Part shown: one piece after another, positions 5,127-28,660 of the stretch
How the letters are laid out: the number at the start of each line of letters is the position of its first letter
Numbering within the stretch: position 1 is the first letter of the stretch
Assembly: GCA_045541375.1 (NCBI GenBank)
Contig: JAZQJB010000087.1
Location: 6,327-70,326 of the forward strand
Reading direction: 5' to 3'
Source of the DNA: Eubacteriales bacterium
GTDB lineage: Bacteria > Bacillota > Clostridia > Oscillospirales > CAG-272
DNA: 64,000 nucleotides
Made by a program: the position numbers and the translations under genes
Notes under the pieces: generated by a model
Told to the model about the DNA's origin: nothing
Seen by the model: only the letters and a program-made list of their open reading frames with translations
Databases searched by the model: none

Positions 5127-5160
5127 ACAGAGCACCGCCCGCGCGGTGCTCTGTGATTTT
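5127..5160. terminator. Intrinsic terminator between convergent genes
   Basis: ACAGAGCACCGC-cc-GCG(C)GGTGCTCTGT hairpin followed by T-rich tail. Confidence 0.65.
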
Positions 5161-6481
5161 ATATTCTCTTTGATTTTTTGCCGTATGCTTTAATGAAATA
5201 AACGGTAGCACACGTGACAAGATCAATGCAAGCAAGCAGAATCAGCCAAGTAAGAATAGTTTCGCCAAGATACTGAGCATCCCAATAAGCATTATTCGTG
5301 ATTACTGTGACCGGCGTTCTGGTTCCTTTGCCCGAGAATTTGATGCTCTTATACAGTGTAGTATTGTAATCATACTCAAAAATGACATTATCGCGAGGGT
5401 CTGTTACAGTATTATGTTCAAGCATAAAATCATCTTCCATATCGGAATGCAAATATACCTTGTTTCCATCCTTGTCGTAATAATAAGTGTTGCGATGCCA
5501 TTCGACGTATTCTGCCTGATCCTCTTTCATAGCTTCGCCGAAGTCTTCAAGCGTATTGTAGACTTCTTTCTTAACAAATCCGTCAACACCGATCAAACCG
5601 ATAACGATTCCCGCGACGAGCAGAACAGAGAGTATAGATCCACCGATGGCTGTAATCTTAACAAGGATTCTTCTGCGGAATGTGATCTTGCGACATTTTT
5701 CTGTGGTAACAAAGATAAGTCCGCGCTTGATGAGTATCGGCTTGACAAACAATAAATGAATAAAACCGAATACGGCAAAGGTTGCCGGAATAAATAATAA
5801 ACTCAACAGCATCCATTCGTTAGGCTGAAGACATAAAACATCAATATTGAATCCGTTTGTTAAGTATAAAACATCAACATCCGAAAATGCAATAAGCAGA
5901 CAGAAAATGAATGTCGCTGTCATACCGTAAAAGAACGCGATTGCAACTCTGGTTATTTTGGAATTTGCCTGTATGATCTTTTCTGCATAAGTTTCGTCAT
6001 ACTCGTCCGAATGTATGATTGAATTTGAAGTTAAGCTGACCTGGCATATCGTGCCTGCCACAACAAAAAGCAGCGATACCCAAAATCCGAGCTTTGTTTT
6101 ATAAAACACAATGCCGCAAACTACTGCTGCTATCAGTCCTGCAAGCAACAAGCCCACAGAGATTAGCGAAAGATTCTTGTATTTTCTTACTCTCGCGCGA
6201 AGCATCGTTTTGAATTGTTTATCGCTTTTTGTACTTGGCTTGGGTTCTTCCGCAATCGCAGCTTCGAGGCTGTTGCGTTCCCCTCGCAAAAGCTCATCCG
6301 TCGTGATCCCGAATATCTCCGCTATCGCGGGTATCAGCGAAAGCTCGGGGTCGCATTCGTCGCGCTCCCAACGGCTGACGGTCTTATCCGAAACGAAAAG
6401 TCTGTCTCCGAGATCCTTTTGCGTCATGCCGTTCGCCTTGCGCAGAACGGCTATAAATTTGCCTATTGTTTTCTTTTCCAT
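5159..6481 (-). CDS. XRE-family HTH regulator with membrane-spanning C-terminus
   Basis: N-terminal IGKFIAVLRK..MTQKDLG...VSDKTVSRWE; about six hydrophobic segments; GGAGG RBS. Confidence 0.85.
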   Translation of the reverse strand: MEKKTIGKFIAVLRKANGMTQKDLGDRLFVSDKTVSRWERDECDPELSLIPAIAEIFGITTDELLRGERNSLEAAIAEEPKPSTKSDKQFKTMLRARVRKYKNLSLISVGLLLAGLIAAVVCGIVFYKTKLGFWVSLLFVVAGTICQVSLTSNSIIHSDEYDETYAEKIIQANSKITRVAIAFFYGMTATFIFCLLIAFSDVDVLYLTNGFNIDVLCLQPNEWMLLSLLFIPATFAVFGFIHLLFVKPILIKRGLIFVTTEKCRKITFRRRILVKITAIGGSILSVLLVAGIVIGLIGVDGFVKKEVYNTLEDFGEAMKEDQAEYVEWHRNTYYYDKDGNKVYLHSDMEDDFMLEHNTVTDPRDNVIFEYDYNTTLYKSIKFSGKGTRTPVTVITNNAYWDAQYLGETILTWLILLACIDLVTCATVYFIKAYGKKSKRI

Positions 6482-6724
6482 AACGTACCTCCATAAGGTC
6501 TGAATCAGCCGTGCCGGCTTGGCTGTGGCTACATTCTACCATAACGTCGGAGAAATTACCACCCCCGCGAGCGAGAATCACTCTCGGAAAGTGAGAATTT
6601 GGGGTTTACGACACTATTATAGCATATTTTGACCGCCTTTTCAATCGGAAATCGAAATTGCTATTGTAAAAAAGAGGAAAATATGCTATAATTAATTGAT
6701 TAAGTAAAAAATGGAGAAATATCC

Positions 6725-8185
6725 ATGGATAATAACTCTAAAGAAAAGAATAAAAGCCTGCGCCGCGCTATGACGGCGGAAAAGCTGACCGAAATGCTAC
6801 GCGAGATCGATATTTCCGCGGCTGTCGAAAGCGAGGGCACTTATACTGCCATGGCGCGCCTGACCGCGCTTTTCGACCACGGCACTTTCTCGCGCATCGG
6901 TGCATATATGAACCGCTCGTCCGATCCCGATGAGCCCGCGGGCGTCATCTGCGGCTACGGCTCTGTCGGAGGACGCCTTGTTTATGCCTTCGCGCAGGAT
7001 CGCGCCCGTATGAACGGCGCTTTCGATTCGACCTCGGGAAAGCTTATCTGCGATCTTTACGCTATGGCTCTGCGGGGCGGCGCGCCGATCGTCGGTATCT
7101 TCGACAGCGACGGCGCCTATATCTACGAGGGCGCAAAAATGCTTGCCGCACTTGGCAAAACCATAGCTGCGAACAGCTCTGCCGTCGGAATCGTCCCGCG
7201 AATCGCGCTCGTTCCCGGCGTTTGCGGAGGAACCCACGCAGTTCTCGCATCCTCTTTTGATTTCCTTATTTCTGTCAAGGAATCGACCGAGGTTTATGCC
7301 GTTTCTCCCTTTGTAAGCGGCGCAAGATCTGCACCCGCACCCGATGGAATTTCAGCTTATGAGGCGGAGGACGAAGGCGAGCTTTACCGCTTCGCGCGCA
7401 GCCTCATTGCTTTTCTTCCTTCTAATAATACCGAGGGAACCGCCATCGACCCCGATGTTCCCGAATTCGAGCTTCAGCGCGCCCCCGATCTTCGCTCTCT
7501 TTGCGGTGAGGCTCTGATCGCGGAGATCGCGGATAAGAAGAACTATGTCCGCCTTTTCGCCGAGTATGCTCCCGAAGTCGCGGTCGGATTTGCTTCTGTC
7601 GGCGGAGTCGGATGCGCTTTCATTTCATCCGAAAGATCGCAGAAAGACGGCGCACTCACCCCAGCCGCCTGCCGCGTTATTACAAAGATACAAAAATTCG
7701 CCGACGCATTCGGCTTGCCGATGCTCACCTTTGTCGATTGCCCCGGATTTGATAATTCCGTCACCGATAATGCCTTTTATCTCGAAAGTGCGTCGGCGAT
7801 GAGCGATGCCTTTGCGTTCTCGTCAAATCCGAAGATCACCACCGTTATCGGCAGAGCCTACGGTCCCGGATTCGTCTATATGGCTTCAAAGTCGATAGGC
7901 GCGGATGTCTGCTTTGCTCTTACCGATTCGATCATAAGCGCACTCTCACCCGAGGCTTCGGTCGCGTTCCTCTGGAACGATAAGATCAAGGAAGGTGATC
8001 TCACGTCAAGCCGCGAAATGCTTGAGCTCGATTGGCGCGAAAAGTATGCTTCGCCGAACGATGCCGCACTTTGCGGAGAGGTGGATGACATTCTGACGCC
8101 CTCAGAACTTCGCCCGAGGATCGTTTCCGCACTTTATATGCTTCTCGGCAAGCTGCGCGCGCAGCCTGTGCGCCGCAAGAGGTGA
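6725..8185 (+). CDS. Acyl-CoA carboxyltransferase (MmdA/PccB-like), divergent
   Basis: GVICGYGSVGGRLVYAFAQD, GIFDSDGA, FVDCPGF, GRAYG, GEVDDI; canonical GG oxyanion-hole motifs altered. Confidence 0.8.
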   Translation: MDNNSKEKNKSLRRAMTAEKLTEMLREIDISAAVESEGTYTAMARLTALFDHGTFSRIGAYMNRSSDPDEPAGVICGYGSVGGRLVYAFAQDRARMNGAFDSTSGKLICDLYAMALRGGAPIVGIFDSDGAYIYEGAKMLAALGKTIAANSSAVGIVPRIALVPGVCGGTHAVLASSFDFLISVKESTEVYAVSPFVSGARSAPAPDGISAYEAEDEGELYRFARSLIAFLPSNNTEGTAIDPDVPEFELQRAPDLRSLCGEALIAEIADKKNYVRLFAEYAPEVAVGFASVGGVGCAFISSERSQKDGALTPAACRVITKIQKFADAFGLPMLTFVDCPGFDNSVTDNAFYLESASAMSDAFAFSSNPKITTVIGRAYGPGFVYMASKSIGADVCFALTDSIISALSPEASVAFLWNDKIKEGDLTSSREMLELDWREKYASPNDAALCGEVDDILTPSELRPRIVSALYMLLGKLRAQPVRRKR

Positions 8186-8189
8186 CGAT

Positions 8190-8471
8190 ATGTTTATGCT
8201 TGAAAATACCGCAACTCTGCCACGCGAGGGCATCTTCGTCCTCATAGGTGTCGCGGTTCTGGTGGTTTTATATATCCTTTTGCGATTACTTAAAAGCAAA
8301 AGAAAAGAAGAAGTCATAGTACCGGAAGAAAATATTGATGAAGAAATTGCCGCAATCACGGCGGCAGTCGCAATGATACTCGAAGAGGAAGCCGAAAGGG
8401 AAGAGCGCAAACCCACACCCTTCCGTGTCGTATCCTTTAAAAGAACGAATAAACGCCGCATAGGAGAATAA
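8190..8471 (+). CDS. OadG/MmdD-like membrane anchor subunit
   Basis: One TM helix, EEIAAITAAVA, C-terminal FRVVSFKR, typical of decarboxylase gamma/delta subunits. Confidence 0.8.
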   Translation: MFMLENTATLPREGIFVLIGVAVLVVLYILLRLLKSKRKEEVIVPEENIDEEIAAITAAVAMILEEEAEREERKPTPFRVVSFKRTNKRRIGE

Positions 8472-8472
8472 A

Positions 8473-8595
8473 ATGAGAAAATTCAAGGTTAAAGTCAACG
8501 GCAAGGAATACGAAGTCGAGATCGAGGAGATCAAGGCTGAGGAAACCGAAAAGCCCGAAGAGAAAAAAGAAGAAACCGAAGAAGAAGATAAATAA
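8473..8595 (+). CDS. 40-aa truncated biotin-carrier-like peptide (N-terminal docking hairpin only)
   Basis: Translated by hand: MRKFKVKVNGKEYEVEIEEIKAEETEKPEEKKEETEEEDK*. AGGAG RBS; the stop overlaps the next ATG. Not in the ORF track. Confidence 0.8.
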   Translation: MRKFKVKVNGKEYEVEIEEIKAEETEKPEEKKEETEEEDK

Positions 8596-9656
8596 TGGAT
8601 AAGTCAAAAAGAGTACTTAACCTTTCGCACGCCGATATTGAAACCTTTGAGGAAAAGGATTTCAAAGGCTATGCGGCTATCGACATAACCGAATATTGCT
8701 TCGGCGAGCTCGAGGAGGACCCTTGGGACACTCTGCGCTCATTGCGCGCGCTTTTGAGGGATGCACGCCTGAAGCTGACCTTCGGCGGTCAGGCTCTCCT
8801 CGGATACCGCCATTATCCCGACGAGATCGTCGATGCTTTTGTTGCCGCGGCGATAGATAACGGCATCAACGTTATCAGGATATTTGATGCTCTCAATGAT
8901 GCCAGAAATCTCGAAACCGCCGCCGCTTCGGCAAAAAAATACGGAGCAGAACTCGAGATCGGTATGGTCTATGCCGAAAGCCCAGTCCACTCGATCCCCT
9001 ATTTCGCCGGCTACGCCTCTCAAATTGCCGCAATGGGTGCGGATGCGATAGGCATTATCGGAGTGTCAAACGAATTCGTCTGCCGCGAGCTGACGGAAGC
9101 AGTTATAAAAGCCGTACAACTTCCCGTAACCGTTTCGGCAACCGAAGAAAAGATTGCCGATATCGCCCTCGATTCGGGAGCGGTGACAGCAGAAGTATAT
9201 CTGCTTGAAGCCTACGGTGCCGATGTTGCAGAAGAAGCCGAGCAAGTGAGAAAAGACGCCGGATGTCCACCAATGGTTTATCCGATCTCGTTCATAATCG
9301 GCGCGCAGGCGATAAGAAATACGTTTTCTTCAAAGAGATATGAAACCGTCGGCGAGGATTTCAAAGATCTCGTTCTCGGCAAATTCGGCAAGCTCCCCGC
9401 GCCTCTTGCGCCCGAGTTCGTTTCCGAGATCGGCGGTGACGAACCTCTTGTGCTCGTCCGCCCCGCCGATCTTTTAGAGCCCGAATACGACCGCATCCGC
9501 GAATATACCGCCCCGTGGCTCGAGCAGGAAGAAGACATCCTCACCTACGCCATTTACCACGGCATTGCAATAGCATTCTTTGAAAAGCGCAAGGCAAAAA
9601 AGTACGCGCTTGATATGCCTCACGCGCACAAGCATAGGGGAATTCATACAGTATAA
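8595..9656 (+). CDS. Oxaloacetate decarboxylase alpha / pyruvate carboxylase CT-like protein lacking catalytic motifs
   Basis: Retains EDPW..LR, LLGYRHY, IRIFDALND.RNL, VRKDAG.PP, RPADLLEPE, EDILTYA; lacks RDAHQS, KDMAG and HxH. Confidence 0.8.
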   Translation: MDKSKRVLNLSHADIETFEEKDFKGYAAIDITEYCFGELEEDPWDTLRSLRALLRDARLKLTFGGQALLGYRHYPDEIVDAFVAAAIDNGINVIRIFDALNDARNLETAAASAKKYGAELEIGMVYAESPVHSIPYFAGYASQIAAMGADAIGIIGVSNEFVCRELTEAVIKAVQLPVTVSATEEKIADIALDSGAVTAEVYLLEAYGADVAEEAEQVRKDAGCPPMVYPISFIIGAQAIRNTFSSKRYETVGEDFKDLVLGKFGKLPAPLAPEFVSEIGGDEPLVLVRPADLLEPEYDRIREYTAPWLEQEEDILTYAIYHGIAIAFFEKRKAKKYALDMPHAHKHRGIHTV

Positions 9657-9759
9657 TTATTCATTTTTCATTATTCATCATTCATTATTCATTTGACCAA
9701 TATTGGTTTTTAATGAATAATGAATAATGAAGCCGCTTCGCTGATGAATAATGAATAAT
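9657..9759. repeat. Inverted heptamer tandem arrays (TTATTCA)n / (TGAATAA)n
   Basis: Five TTATTCA-like units 9657-9691, central palindrome ACCAATATTGGT 9696-9707, then about five complementary units 9711-9759. Confidence 0.85.
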
Positions 9760-9854
9760 TGTGGTAGCTTTTATCCCGTCGGTCAAAAAGCTTTTATATA
9801 ATAATGTATTGCATAATTGCAACGCAACGCTTCTGTAATTTGGAGGTCTATGTT

Positions 9855-10217
9855 ATGAAAGAGAATCTGCTTATTGATAAATCAGTTTTATTTGCTGTAC
9901 GAATAATTAAATTATATCAATATTTGACAAGAAATAAAAAAGAATCGATCATTTCTAAGCAAATTATTCGCAGCGGTACAAGTTTAGGCGCAAATATTAA
10001 CGAAGCAAATTACGCACAGAGTGTACGCGATTTTATATCAAAAATGCATATTGCACTTAAAGAAACCGCTGAAACTGAATATTGGCTCAGACTTCTTATT
10101 ATGTCGGAGTACTTAACAGAAGATATGGGACAATCAATACTAACCGATTGCTTGGAGATTAAACGAATTCTTATTGCGACAATTAATACGGCTAAGAAAA
10201 ATGAGAACAGACAATAG
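9855..10217 (+). CDS. Four-helix bundle protein (TIGR02436 / 23S rRNA-IVP family)
   Basis: KSVLFAVRII.LY, SKQIIRSGTSLGANINEA, DFISKMHIALKETAETEYWL; GGAGG RBS at 9842. Confidence 0.9.
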   Translation: MKENLLIDKSVLFAVRIIKLYQYLTRNKKESIISKQIIRSGTSLGANINEANYAQSVRDFISKMHIALKETAETEYWLRLLIMSEYLTEDMGQSILTDCLEIKRILIATINTAKKNENRQ

Positions 10218-10234
10218 AATAATAAAATAACTTA

Positions 10235-10280
10235 CCGCCGAGAGTGACCAAAAGGTTGCTCTCGGCGGGATTTCATTTAT
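10235..10280. terminator. Intrinsic terminator
   Basis: CCGCCGAGAG...CTCTCGGCGG stem between convergent genes. Confidence 0.65.
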
Positions 10281-10316
10281 TTCACGATGATTCTTTAAGA
10301 AAGGGCGGTAAACTCC

Positions 10317-11966
10317 TTATGGAATATAGATAAATGCCCCGAGAGAGGGAGACATATTCTCATCATATTTCAGCCAACCGCTTGCAAGTGCATATTTCGC
10401 AAGATAGCCGAAGGTGTGGTGTGCGGTGCAAAAAGATTCCAGTATCGCATCCATCACTGTATCCTGTGTGCGAATGCTTTCAGGCAGATCATCATACAGG
10501 ATTTCTCGAATTGTGTGGTTGATCTGATCCAGCAAAGTCATAATCTCGGCATGTAACTTACCCCTTCTGTCGCTATGCTCCTTAAATTCCGCGCTGAACT
10601 TATCTTTTTTGCATAATTTGACAAACATTCGAATGCTTTCGCCATTGATGACTGACACAGTCGGAACGTACTTCCCATCAATTTTAGCCGCATATCCGTG
10701 CTCAACAAGCTTGTCCGCTGACGAGAACTTTCGAGGAGATTTGTTTTTCACCATCAGCAACAATTCATGGGTGTCATCTTGTGAAAGATATACCGGTTTA
10801 CTGATCTGCTTTCCCTTATATCCGATTCGGTAATGATTAAAGCCGTTTGTTATACTATTTGGGACTATGGGGTCCGGCGTGAAATCGCAGATCTCATAGG
10901 CAAGAATATCCCAAATCCCGCCGTCCTTCCTCTTGGTGTGTCCAAGCTTGACTTTTGGCGAGCTTTTGCAAAGTTCATACAATCCTATGAAGAAATTCGG
11001 CAAAAGTATCCACTTTGCTTCCTCGTAGCTTTGATAGGAGCCATAGAAGGATAGCCCCGCCTCCTTATACTGAGCCATTAAACGGTCTGTATTCTCGGTG
11101 ATCAGATCGGTCAGGTGAGGGAGAATATCTTCATAATATAAATGTACTCTATGAAGAGCTTCACGGCTGATAATGGGAAAGTTTGTCTCATATCTCTCGC
11201 CATTTTTAATAAGTAACGTTTGTGCTGTCAGATGCTTCACTGTATCTTCAATATACGGCAAAGCAACGCCCACCTCGATGGCGAGCTCCTCTGCGGTCAT
11301 GGGATTGTCGTAACAGGAAAGGAAAATGTTTTGATTCAGCTTTGGATCCATCAAAGACCACGGCTGTCCAAGTTGCCCGGGGCACTCACAAATATTATTA
11401 TAGAAAATATTATCGGGGTTATAACTGCGTTTTCCAAATTCTCTTGCCATATCCATACCTTCTTTCAAAATTTGTCTTGCGCGGAGAAGCCGAGACTTCG
11501 CCGTGTTCGTGGAAAGCGAGAGCGATTCTGCAATTTCACGAAGGTTTTTGTTTTCGATGTAATAGGCAATGACGATATTGCGATAATCACTCTTAATGAA
11601 GGCGAGCTCGCGCCGAAGCAGAGCCATTTGCTCTGTATGTATCATTTCATCAAGGATATTATCGCACTCGTCCTCAATCTCATAATCGCCGATATCGGAA
11701 CCGGTTATCAATTCGTTTCGATTATGTTTTTCTTTAGCCCATACGGAATAACGGTTGCGTGCAACCTGCCATACCCACGCCGAAAAGTTTGCCGGAATCG
11801 TGCTTTTATTCAAAGCGGTAATGATTTGAAGTGCTATCTCTTGTGTCAGATCTTCAGCTTCAATATGACTTCCGGTCTTTTTCAAACAGAAGTAAAACAG
11901 CTTCTCCATATAGCTTTCGACAAATTCATTTATAAGCCTATTTCGCATTTCGTTCGTGTCTTGCAT
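10317..11966 (-). CDS. ECF sigma factor with ~380-aa C-terminal extension
   Basis: Region 2 (EAEDLTQE, FSAWVWQVARN) and region 4 (EIAESLSLS.NTAKSRL.RAR) followed by an HTH-like segment (MTAEELAIEVGVALPYIED); AAGGAGG RBS before MQDT. Confidence 0.85.
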   Translation of the reverse strand: MQDTNEMRNRLINEFVESYMEKLFYFCLKKTGSHIEAEDLTQEIALQIITALNKSTIPANFSAWVWQVARNRYSVWAKEKHNRNELITGSDIGDYEIEDECDNILDEMIHTEQMALLRRELAFIKSDYRNIVIAYYIENKNLREIAESLSLSTNTAKSRLLRARQILKEGMDMAREFGKRSYNPDNIFYNNICECPGQLGQPWSLMDPKLNQNIFLSCYDNPMTAEELAIEVGVALPYIEDTVKHLTAQTLLIKNGERYETNFPIISREALHRVHLYYEDILPHLTDLITENTDRLMAQYKEAGLSFYGSYQSYEEAKWILLPNFFIGLYELCKSSPKVKLGHTKRKDGGIWDILAYEICDFTPDPIVPNSITNGFNHYRIGYKGKQISKPVYLSQDDTHELLLMVKNKSPRKFSSADKLVEHGYAAKIDGKYVPTVSVINGESIRMFVKLCKKDKFSAEFKEHSDRRGKLHAEIMTLLDQINHTIREILYDDLPESIRTQDTVMDAILESFCTAHHTFGYLAKYALASGWLKYDENMSPSLGAFIYIP

Positions 11967-12102
11967 TTTCTCGCCTCCTTTCATCCATATAGTGTAGCGT
12001 TTTTGAATTTGGGTGCATCGATTTATAAAATTATATCATAAAATTGTGAATTAGTCTACATATAAATACTTGTTTTTGCCCGATGTGCGCTTATCAAGAA
12101 AA

Positions 12103-22730: not shown

Positions 22731-22758
22731 ATATTCGTATTTGTTTACGATGTATTTT

Positions 22759-22827
22759 GCTTATATAATATCTGAAATAAGGTCAGAAAGTTTCTACCGG
22801 ATAGCCGTAAATCGTCCGACTATAAGC
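22759..22827 (+). ncRNA. Purine riboswitch aptamer (guanine-type)
   Basis: P1 GCTTATA/TATAAGC; P2 TCTGA-aataagg-TCAGA; core GTTTCTACCGG; L3 CCGTAAA; GACTAT gives C at the specificity position; upstream of a nucleoside ABC transporter. Confidence 0.92.
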
Positions 22828-22847
22828 TCCCATAAAGATTTTTGACG

Positions 22848-27937: not shown

Positions 27938-28660
27938 ATGGAAATATTCAGATTTGAAACAATAGACTCGACCTTCGTTGAAGCGGGCAGACGTATGCGC
28001 GAGCTTTCCGACGGCGCGTATCTGTTTACCTCACGGGAACAGACCGCAGGCAGAGGGCAAGGAACTCATACCTTCTATTCTCCAAGAGATAACGGTATTT
28101 ATGCTACGCTCCTTCTGGTAGGCGATTACGCCGACGTATGTATGCCTGCATTCTCATCCAAGCTCGGACCATTTGCAACGGTAACGATTACAAATGCCGT
28201 TCTTGATGCCTGCTCGGATTTCGATCAGCGACTCGGAATCAAGTGGCAAAACGACCTTCTTCTTGACGGAAAGAAGTATGGCGGTGTTATTACCGCAGTA
28301 ACGGTAAAGGAAGGCAAGCTCACAACGATCAGGATCGGTTTCGGGATCAACACGGGATATGCCGATATGCCCGACGAGCTTCGCGGCAGAGTGACCACTC
28401 TCGGACTTGACCCTGAGGATACCGAAAAGCTGATGATCGAGATCGCTGACAGGCTTTGCAACCACCTTCCCGAAGCCAAGCAAGAGGAGCTTTACAACGA
28501 ATACGTTAAGTATTGCACCACCCCGGGCAGAAATATCATGCTACCCGACGGCAGATGCGCCACGGCTATAAGCATTGCCTCTGATTTCTCGCTCATCTAT
28601 TCCGTCGAGGGCAAACGCCCCGAATTCACAAACACAACCGCGGGACTTATAATCCTATGA
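27938..28660 (+). CDS. birA: Biotin-protein ligase, group I (no HTH), divergent
   Basis: IDST, EQTAGRGQ...FYSP, IKWQNDL..GKKYGG, IGFGIN. Confidence 0.75.
   Translation: MEIFRFETIDSTFVEAGRRMRELSDGAYLFTSREQTAGRGQGTHTFYSPRDNGIYATLLLVGDYADVCMPAFSSKLGPFATVTITNAVLDACSDFDQRLGIKWQNDLLLDGKKYGGVITAVTVKEGKLTTIRIGFGINTGYADMPDELRGRVTTLGLDPEDTEKLMIEIADRLCNHLPEAKQEELYNEYVKYCTTPGRNIMLPDGRCATAISIASDFSLIYSVEGKRPEFTNTTAGLIIL

Follow-up and report, generated by a model that had tools for sequence, protein, structure and literature searches.

What keeps an enzyme complex in a genome after much of the machinery for its chemistry has gone? This question is raised by a four-gene operon at positions 6725-9656 of a 64,000-nucleotide stretch of DNA from a Clostridia bacterium (assembly GCA_045541375.1, contig JAZQJB010000087.1), the whole of which is called the window below. 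Biotin-dependent decarboxylases and transcarboxylases are multi-subunit machines, each part of which is explained by the swinging biotin arm. The operon is a stable reduced derivative of a membrane-bound operon of this kind, with the order carboxyltransferase (CT), anchor, carrier, OadB and OadA. Since the pump, the biotin domain and one of the two active sites have been lost and the genes are nevertheless under selection, what is left must now do something else. Our leading answer, drawn from sequence and held with a little less than even confidence, is that the carboxyltransferase is the core and in all likelihood continues to act on acyl-CoA with no need of biotin bound to a protein, the anchor, the carrier remnant and the OadA barrel being structural.

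Layout, origin and conservation of the reduced operon

Genes 1 to 4 of the operon are named CT', Delta', stub and OadA':

6725..8185, plus strand: CT', a carboxyltransferase of the 12S/MmdA/PccB fold, 486 amino acids (PF01039 and PDB matches)
8190..8471, plus strand: Delta', an OadG/MmdD-like membrane anchor, 93 amino acids (motifs in common with the anchors of full operons)
8473..8595, plus strand: the stub, the N-terminal segment of a biotin carrier, 40 amino acids (matches to the starts of models only)
8595..9656, plus strand: OadA', an OadA/5S/PycB-like protein, 353 amino acids (PF02436, alignment, AlphaFold2 model and Foldseek)

The list of open reading frames (ORFs) shows no internal stop in any of the four. 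Read off the sequence, the junction of CT' and anchor is TGA-cgat-ATG with a 4-nt gap, that of anchor and stub is TAA-a-ATG with a 1-nt gap, and the stub and OadA' overlap by 1 nt in TAATG. That is to say, the four genes are translationally coupled, and the ORFs and junctions bear out an earlier, sequence-only reading of this DNA, which had described the gene order, gaps of at most 4 nt, one TAATG overlap and intact frames.

The canonical loci used for comparison number 68 (L021-L088): 52 are pump-less sets of CT, biotin carboxyl carrier protein (BCCP) and OadA, seven also have OadB (five of the seven with an anchor detectable by BLAST), and nine are partial, with OadA only in seven and BCCP-OadA in two. 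The closest full operon, L021 (CT-anchor-BCCP-OadB-OadA), encodes a CT 66% identical to CT' and an OadA that is 57% and 48% identical to OadA' over two aligned parts, and the same p160-MscL genes lie downstream of it and of the window operon. Because this full operon is partly syntenic with the window, the reduced operon is read as an in-place reduction of a pump-type operon. The trees of CT and OadA conflict as to whether the two reduced lineages, A and B, arose once or twice. In the CT tree lineage A stands next to L021, and A and B as one clade are rejected (approximately unbiased (AU) test, p 3e-8); in the OadA tree A and B are joined on long branches, and A with L021 is rejected (AU p 0.0034). 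Both are quick trees, and the groups were named after the trees had been seen. If the CT tree is right, the same four-gene end state was reached twice independently.

Twelve related reduced loci (L009-L020) come from species-representative genomes, all of them metagenome-assembled genomes (MAGs) of herbivore-gut Clostridia; ten of these loci are held by G001-G010, which together with the window genome (G000) make up lineage A. The order CT, anchor, (stub), OadA' and the intact frames recur in all twelve, the stub in 11. G151 and G070, which are placed in the same genus as the window genome, bring to 14 the number of other genomes with an intact four-gene layout; in 13 of these the stub is present. 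The version in G151 and G070 is diverged (CT of 497 and 510 amino acids, anchor of 135 and 130, stub ORF of 54 and 76, OadA-like protein of 408 and 413); its OadA-like protein lacks RDxHQS and HxH and has ILDPE for IKDMA. As a whole the reduced system is rare in the databases: of 1.84 billion cluster representatives at 50% identity, only a handful belong to it.

Selection was measured as pairwise Nei-Gojobori ratios of nonsynonymous to synonymous substitution (dN/dS), with a canonical baseline taken from the first 40 of 102 eligible pairs. Among the reduced loci CT' lies at 0.05-0.12, against a median of 0.089 for canonical CTs; CT' is therefore as constrained as working CTs. The anchor lies mostly at 0.05-0.24, with a single value of 0.63 at a dS of 0.11, and the stub at 0-0.19 (dS 0.1-1.3). 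For OadA' the ratio is 0.07-0.18 versus a median of 0.025 for canonical OadA, a relaxation of about 3-7 fold; the neighbouring control gene GlnA gives 0.02-0.03. The median ratio of OadA to CT protein distance is 2.43 in the reduced loci (66 pairs) versus 0.34 in the canonical ones (1482 pairs). OadA' is thus relaxed several-fold yet still selected. All four genes are held by purifying selection and are not decaying; the signs of decay named by the sequence-only reading, a dN/dS near 1 or frequent frameshifts among orthologues, are not seen, dN/dS being far below 1 and the frames intact in 15 loci. The anchor N-terminus, OadA' and a neighbouring helix-turn-helix (HTH) protein are highly divergent between genomes whose GlnA is 97-99% identical, and this patchiness points to recombination or fast evolution there.

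What the four subunits retain

In Pfam, OadA' is recognised only by PF02436 (PYC_OADA), at 73.8 bits versus a cutoff of 27, with no PF00682 (HMGL-like) match, and it falls below the curated cutoffs of TIGR01108 (249 versus 756.5) and PRK12331 (266 versus 718); the canonical OadA of a complete operon on contig C14 of the same assembly passes (758 versus 718). Among the best 120 homologues there are 39 full-length clusters of 349-369 amino acids, with PF02436 only and down to 44% identity, and five fragments. In alignment with canonical OadA, a 15-residue gap stands in place of the LRDxHQS segment, IIGVS stands at the place of IKDMAG, HTHYT is deleted, about 85 residues including PGGM are deleted, and MVYPISF is found where canonical OadA has LVTPSSQ. 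Ile155 is aligned to the lysine K184 of 5S, with the offset checked against the M186I structure entry. The losses listed by the sequence-only reading (RDAHQS, IKDMAG, HxH, PGGM and LVTPTSQ) are thereby all confirmed. The metal ligands (the Asp of RDxHQS, and HxH) and the carbamylated Lys are lost in all 13 lineage-A sequences as well as in G151 and G070. According to PMC2881705, the carboxyl acceptor in Vibrio cholerae OadA is Lys178, and Lys178 and the Zn site carry out the carboxyl transfer.

Across 62 canonical OadAs, 210 columns reach a conservation of at least 95%; OadA' has kept 59 of them, and it shares with canonical barrels DPW, GQ..LG and DALND.RN, on the C-terminal face. Its AlphaFold2 model (predicted local distance difference test (pLDDT) 78, predicted template modelling score (pTM) 0.75) places eight strands in residues 1-201, with a pLDDT of 67-96 over that block, which corrects the view that half of the barrel is missing. 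In Foldseek the top match is 5ks8_C (E 1e-24, TMq 0.74), and TMq is 0.73-0.75 to 5ks8, 1u5j and 2nx9; the best sequence match is likewise PycB 5ks8 (1.9e-57). OadA' is thus modelled as a (beta/alpha)8 barrel that is whole though pared down, lacking the metal ligands, the carbamyl-Lys and the funnel, and is followed by the conserved C-terminal PYC_OADA domain.

Apart from the reduced loci, four library matches (P0126, P0129, P0144 and P0175) are OadA/PycB-like proteins of 465-591 amino acids with degenerate RDxHQS, KDMAG, HxH and PGGM, one of them fused to a biotinyl domain. Such full-length proteins suggest that dead OadA subunits may be a wider, undescribed theme. A narrow literature search found no paper uniting pseudoenzyme, carboxyltransferase and biotin.

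The stub consists of the carrier N-terminus followed by an acidic, Lys-rich tail. It matches only positions 1-31 of PRK06549 and positions 1-24 of MmdC, it shares 76% identity with the start of the L021 BCCP, and no PF00364 match is found in its 40 residues, whereas the full carriers of relatives carry EAMKME; the earlier claim of a carrier without a biotin domain is therefore correct. Residues 1-13 and 15-21 (MRKFKVKVNGKEY, then VEIEEIK) are invariant in all 12 sequences, position 14 being E or V, and K31, K32, E33 and E34 of the tail are invariant as well. The first 21 residues stay fixed while synonymous sites vary. The stub aligns to the association region of fused OadA/PycB models; the C14 BCCP, a member of the same family, matches PRK09282 with its N-terminus from position 465 onward.

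The anchor has one N-terminal transmembrane helix, a EEIAAITAAVAMILEEEA helix and a C-terminal FRVVSFKRTN motif, and its transmembrane segment, AAITAAV helix and FRVVSFKR motif align with the anchors of the full operons L021, L022 and L086. Its profile evidence is weak: ACC_epsilon is matched at E 0.0085 only, with no match to the OadG-family models TIGR01195 and NF047902 at E <0.1, while the C14 anchor passes TIGR01195. The sole reduced locus without a stub, L018, also has an anchor without the AAITAAV helix and with the FRxVxF tail kept (6730-8077), and this single co-loss hints that the stub binds the AAITAAV helix. A complex prediction for CT', OadA' and the stub with anchor residues 35-93 as partner, run without controls, scored 0.17 and 0.20 against a mark of 0.32 and is taken as evidence neither for nor against a complex.

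CT' matches PF01039 at 197 bits (cutoff 22.3) over profile positions 3-490 of 493, i.e., as a full-length protein of two crotonase-fold domains. Its closest solved structures are 1vrg (E 1e-55 to 7.6e-55) and the 12S subunit 1on3 (1e-53). The score against TIGR01117 (MmdA) is 229.9 bits and thus below the curated cutoff of 998.8; since the CT of the complete C14 operon fails as well (252 bits), this is a trait of the subfamily. At the two Gly-Gly/Gly-Ala motifs, which we take to be the oxyanion-hole motifs with residue roles as in PccB, CT' has VCGGTH and AYGPGF versus CAGGAV and AYGGAY in 1vrg. Deviation from PccB/12S is found in all 22 inspected canonical CTs of the subfamily, which read C[SAGF]G.. 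and AxG[ASGPTM].., and the full operon L021 reads AYGPSF; such motifs therefore occur in complete operons with BCCP and OadB. Across 55 canonical CTs, 59 columns reach a conservation of at least 90%; CT' retains 44 of these and has mostly conservative changes at the others. In the motif blocks of its active site it barely differs from L021, and even the distant copies in G151 and G070 have these blocks.

In summary, CT' shows no visible sign of having been disarmed; of the four genes it is under the strongest constraint, and it is likely the functional core. The sequence-only reading had noted CGGT and AYGPG correctly, but its conclusion that the CT is disarmed is not supported, given the subfamily-wide motifs, the 44 of 59 columns and the canonical level of dN/dS. 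In the same way, its proposal of a complex repurposed rather than decaying holds for OadA' and the stub, which are without chemistry yet selected, and is not supported where it extends the loss of chemistry to the CT.

The missing partners were also sought in the related genomes. No OadB was found by profile search in the window, as previously noted, nor elsewhere on its contig, and PF03977 is absent from all ten of G001-G010 and from both G070 and G151. In G001-G010 there is one match each per genome to PYC_OADA and Carboxyl_trans, namely the operon genes, and none beyond them. The Biotin_lipoyl matches in these ten genomes belong to an E2 acyltransferase of about 430 amino acids in nine (the G000 copy, scanned with Pfam, is an E2); three further matches are weak, and the two of these that were scanned (G007 and G010) are RnfC. 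In G070 and G151 the only Biotin_lipoyl match is a single E2-sized frame, in G151. Neither a biotin carrier nor a canonical OadA nor a further carboxyltransferase was found in these 12 related genomes. The proposed genome search for oadB and biotin domains is thus negative in the relatives and positive in the window's own assembly, where C14 carries a complete CT-OadG-BCCP-OadB-OadA operon (L004, 61-5022, minus strand) with the only OadB of the assembly.

Weighing the explanations

The preferred explanation, a carboxyltransferase with structural partners, starts from the losses shown above: the OadB gene is gone, the carrier has been cut to an N-terminal assembly segment of about 21 residues, and the OadA subunit has kept the barrel and the C-terminal domain while losing every residue of the metal and carbamyl-lysine site. 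CT' would still bind acyl-CoA at an essentially unchanged active site and would most likely catalyse a direct or free-biotin-assisted decarboxylation of a carboxy-acyl-CoA, without protein-bound biotin; GcdA on its own is able to work with free biotin. The dead OadA' barrel, the stub and the anchor may serve as obligatory structural partners, needed for the assembly of CT' and for its attachment to the membrane. The putative assembly module comprises the stub, the C-terminal domain of OadA' and, from the anchor, its helix and its tail. In transcarboxylase, 12S is joined to 5S through the N-terminus of the 1.3S carrier. According to PMC2881705, in oxaloacetate decarboxylase the association domain of alpha binds the C-terminal part of gamma and ensures assembly, and an assembly role of the anchor, stub and OadA' would parallel this association domain and gamma.

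Several points weigh against this explanation. Methylmalonyl-CoA mutase and FabD are each found in none of the 11 genomes searched, and no other carboxylase was found, so that the genomes offer CT' no obvious carboxy-acyl-CoA substrate. The equivalent of an oxyanion-hole Gly is Pro or Val in CT' (the Pro being common with L021), and six family-conserved columns are radically changed, namely E57R, K107L, Y143L, S154V, A220L and H485K. Three non-catalytic partners and a membrane anchor are hard to justify for a plain soluble-type decarboxylase. An orphan, constrained BirA homologue, described below, suggests that the reduced system may be less biotin-free than it looks. The related genomes, except G070 and G151 (each 98% complete), are MAGs of unstated completeness. 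Moreover, catalytic activity is not demonstrable from sequence.

Two metabolic leads were followed and dropped. The methylmalonyl-CoA pathway as a clue to the substrate was abandoned on the missing mutase. A link to fatty-acid synthesis, with a lost need for malonyl-CoA, was rejected because FabD is also found in only 17 of 60 other sampled genomes of the family, most of which have canonical OadA; the canonical loci themselves are mostly transcarboxylase-like, as noted above.

The strongest rival, possible but less probable than the biotin-carrier-free enzyme, is a fully non-catalytic pseudoenzyme complex of four subunits that has survived divergence at the level of the genus or deeper. Tethered to the membrane, it would act as a sensor or scaffold, with acyl-CoA bound by CT' and perhaps an oxo-acid by the barrel, and would govern another process. 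It would fit the lack of a substrate-supplying pathway and of a biotin carrier, the retention of anchor, stub and dead barrel, the canonical DPW, GQ..LG and DALND.RN residues kept by OadA', the divergent neighbour encoding a membrane HTH regulator, and the very divergent anchor, OadA' and HTH forms met between close relatives. However, the constraint and the active-site blocks of CT' are indistinguishable from those of working CTs, the partner and the output that it calls for are hypothetical, and the HTH gene does not accompany the full operon L021, while two of the 12 related loci lack it. Since ligand-binding pseudoenzymes give the same signals, sequence cannot separate an enzyme from a sensor here. 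Either a 12S/MmdA-type CT has a physiological activity independent of a carrier, or the complex has a non-catalytic role that outlives its chemistry.

A cryptic dependence on biotin is improbable. Under it, the orphan BirA would biotinylate a non-canonical acceptor, e.g., a lysine of the stub tail, where KKEE is invariant in all 12 sequences, and CT' would still work with a cofactor bound to a protein. The ligase concerned is the following:

27938-28660, plus strand: BirA homologue, 240 amino acids (71.9 bits to TIGR00121, whose cutoff is 83.1)

It has a score similar to that of BirA from L021 and L023, two relatives with full operons, keeps the GRG (GRGQGTHTF) and KWxND (KWQND) motifs, and is present in all 11 lineage-A genomes at a dN/dS of 0.026-0.046, with no acceptor found, about 18-20 kb from the operon and on the same contig in at least six. 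A separate LplA-like ligase adjoins the E2 gene, so that lipoylation does not explain the BirA homologue. On the other hand, G070 and G151 have the reduced operon and no BirA match, BioY is found in none of the 11 genomes, and with OadA' dead and OadB absent a carrier would have one station only. Moreover, no natural bacterial enzyme is known to us to be biotinylated anywhere but in a biotinyl domain.

Less probable still is that the reduced operon works in trans with a complete one, borrowing its carrier and OadB, with CT' as an extra substrate module. This is prompted by the complete operon on C14 in the window's own assembly, but none of the 12 other genomes with a reduced operon has OadB or a biotin carrier, and the C14 operon itself is absent from all 12. 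It adjoins a Nudix gene and a REP-associated tyrosine transposase gene. Nothing but a multi-copy repeat connects C14 with DNA typical of the lineage (96% identity to G001), and the contigs of relatives break at a multi-copy repeat that lies at about 8555-8843 of L004; C14 may therefore be a chimeric contig or a strain-specific, recent gain.

That the genes are pseudogenes on their way out, as the lost pump, biotinyl domain and catalytic residues and an OadA' evolving about 7x faster relative to CT might suggest, is refuted by the layout and by dN/dS far below 1 in all four genes, with frames intact in 15 loci, lengths kept down to 37-45% identity, stub residues 1-21 invariant save for E/V at 14 while synonymous sites vary, and a divergence of loci that excludes one recent clone.

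Whether CT' is an enzyme or a sensor, the operon separates what such enzymes need for assembly (the N-terminus of the carrier, the helix and tail of the anchor, and the C-terminal domain of OadA) from what they need for catalysis, and it offers a natural minimal construct for structural work.

Neighbourhood and comparison with known systems

The sites and the gene upstream of the operon are as follows:

6664..6692, plus strand: promoter-like TTGTAA-17-TATAAT, TG-extended, about 33 nt upstream of the CT' start (consensus match only)
6644-6616, minus strand: divergent promoter-like site for the HTH gene (consensus match only)
5159..6481, minus strand: XRE-type HTH protein with a membrane/C-terminal part, 440 amino acids (HTH_3 at 38.9 bits)

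The HTH gene adjoins the operon in 10 of the 12 related loci and was not found beside L021. Between relatives its HTH end has 80-92% DNA identity and the rest about 45-55%, as if swapped between allelic forms; the protein is a conserved neighbour and a possible regulator. No Rfam match (riboswitch or leader) was found upstream near the operon. PADLOC gave no match for the four operon proteins and only generic HTH matches for the neighbour, and identity as a defence system was set aside on that silence. Metatranscriptome contigs from two runs of one study span 6604-8248, 6655-8213 and 8265-9625; because contigs of an RNA library can stem from DNA, they are a weak hint of expression only, and the beginning of two of them at 6604 and 6655 does not by itself prove a transcript start.

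Directly after the OadA' stop lies a short multi-copy repeat (9656-9770), distinct from the one on C14, with a depth of 100-300 versus about 8 in the flanks in gut metagenome contigs, many of which end at 9655/9656, 9693/9694 or 9760. Between the operon and p160-MscL, at 9804-11984, are a gene for a 23S rRNA intervening-sequence protein (PF05635) and a 555-amino-acid sigma-70-like gene with a long C-terminal extension; both are found here and at L010, and not beside the operon in other related loci (e.g., L012 and L017). The neighbours MscL, a flavin adenine dinucleotide (FAD) oxidoreductase, tRNA synthetases and EamA were considered as hints to a pathway and gave none. Farther downstream, a purine riboswitch aptamer (RF00167, 77 bits) lies at 22741-22842 on the plus strand.

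Among known systems, MdcD/MdcE, the carboxyltransferase subunits of biotin-independent malonate decarboxylase, set a precedent as carboxyltransferase-fold proteins that decarboxylate a malonyl thioester without biotin. The similarity of CT' to them is weak (NCBIfam TIGR03133, E 8e-4, far below the cutoff), CT' is a fused two-domain protein of the MmdA/12S type rather than an MdcD/E pair, and there is no Mdc acyl carrier or other mdc gene near it. PycB of the two-subunit pyruvate carboxylase (5ks8) is the best sequence and fold match for OadA', which differs from 5ks8_C, by sequence alignment, in lacking about residues 1-51 and 206-319, the catalytic residues and the C-terminal BCCP.

The Propionibacterium transcarboxylase (a 12S CT core, OadA-like 5S dimers and the 1.3S carrier) draws its subunits from the three families met here: 1on3 and 1rqb/1u5j rank high among the PDB matches, the 52 pump-less canonical loci are sets of that kind, and the role proposed for the stub is that of the 1.3S N-terminus. 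Unlike it, the reduced operon has a membrane anchor, and transcarboxylation is impossible in it, since the 5S-like site is destroyed and the carrier is without biotin. Compared with MmdABCDE and OadGAB, the reduced operon is without the OadB/MmdB pump, the biotinyl domain, the OadA metal site and the carbamyl-Lys, and all its equivalog scores are far below cutoff. Nevertheless, the fold of CT' is that of MmdA, motifs of the anchor recur in the MmdD/OadG-type anchors of full operons, the stub matches the MmdC N-terminus, and the genes for CT, small anchor, carrier, (pump) and OadA follow one another as they do in C14 and L021, both of them full operons.

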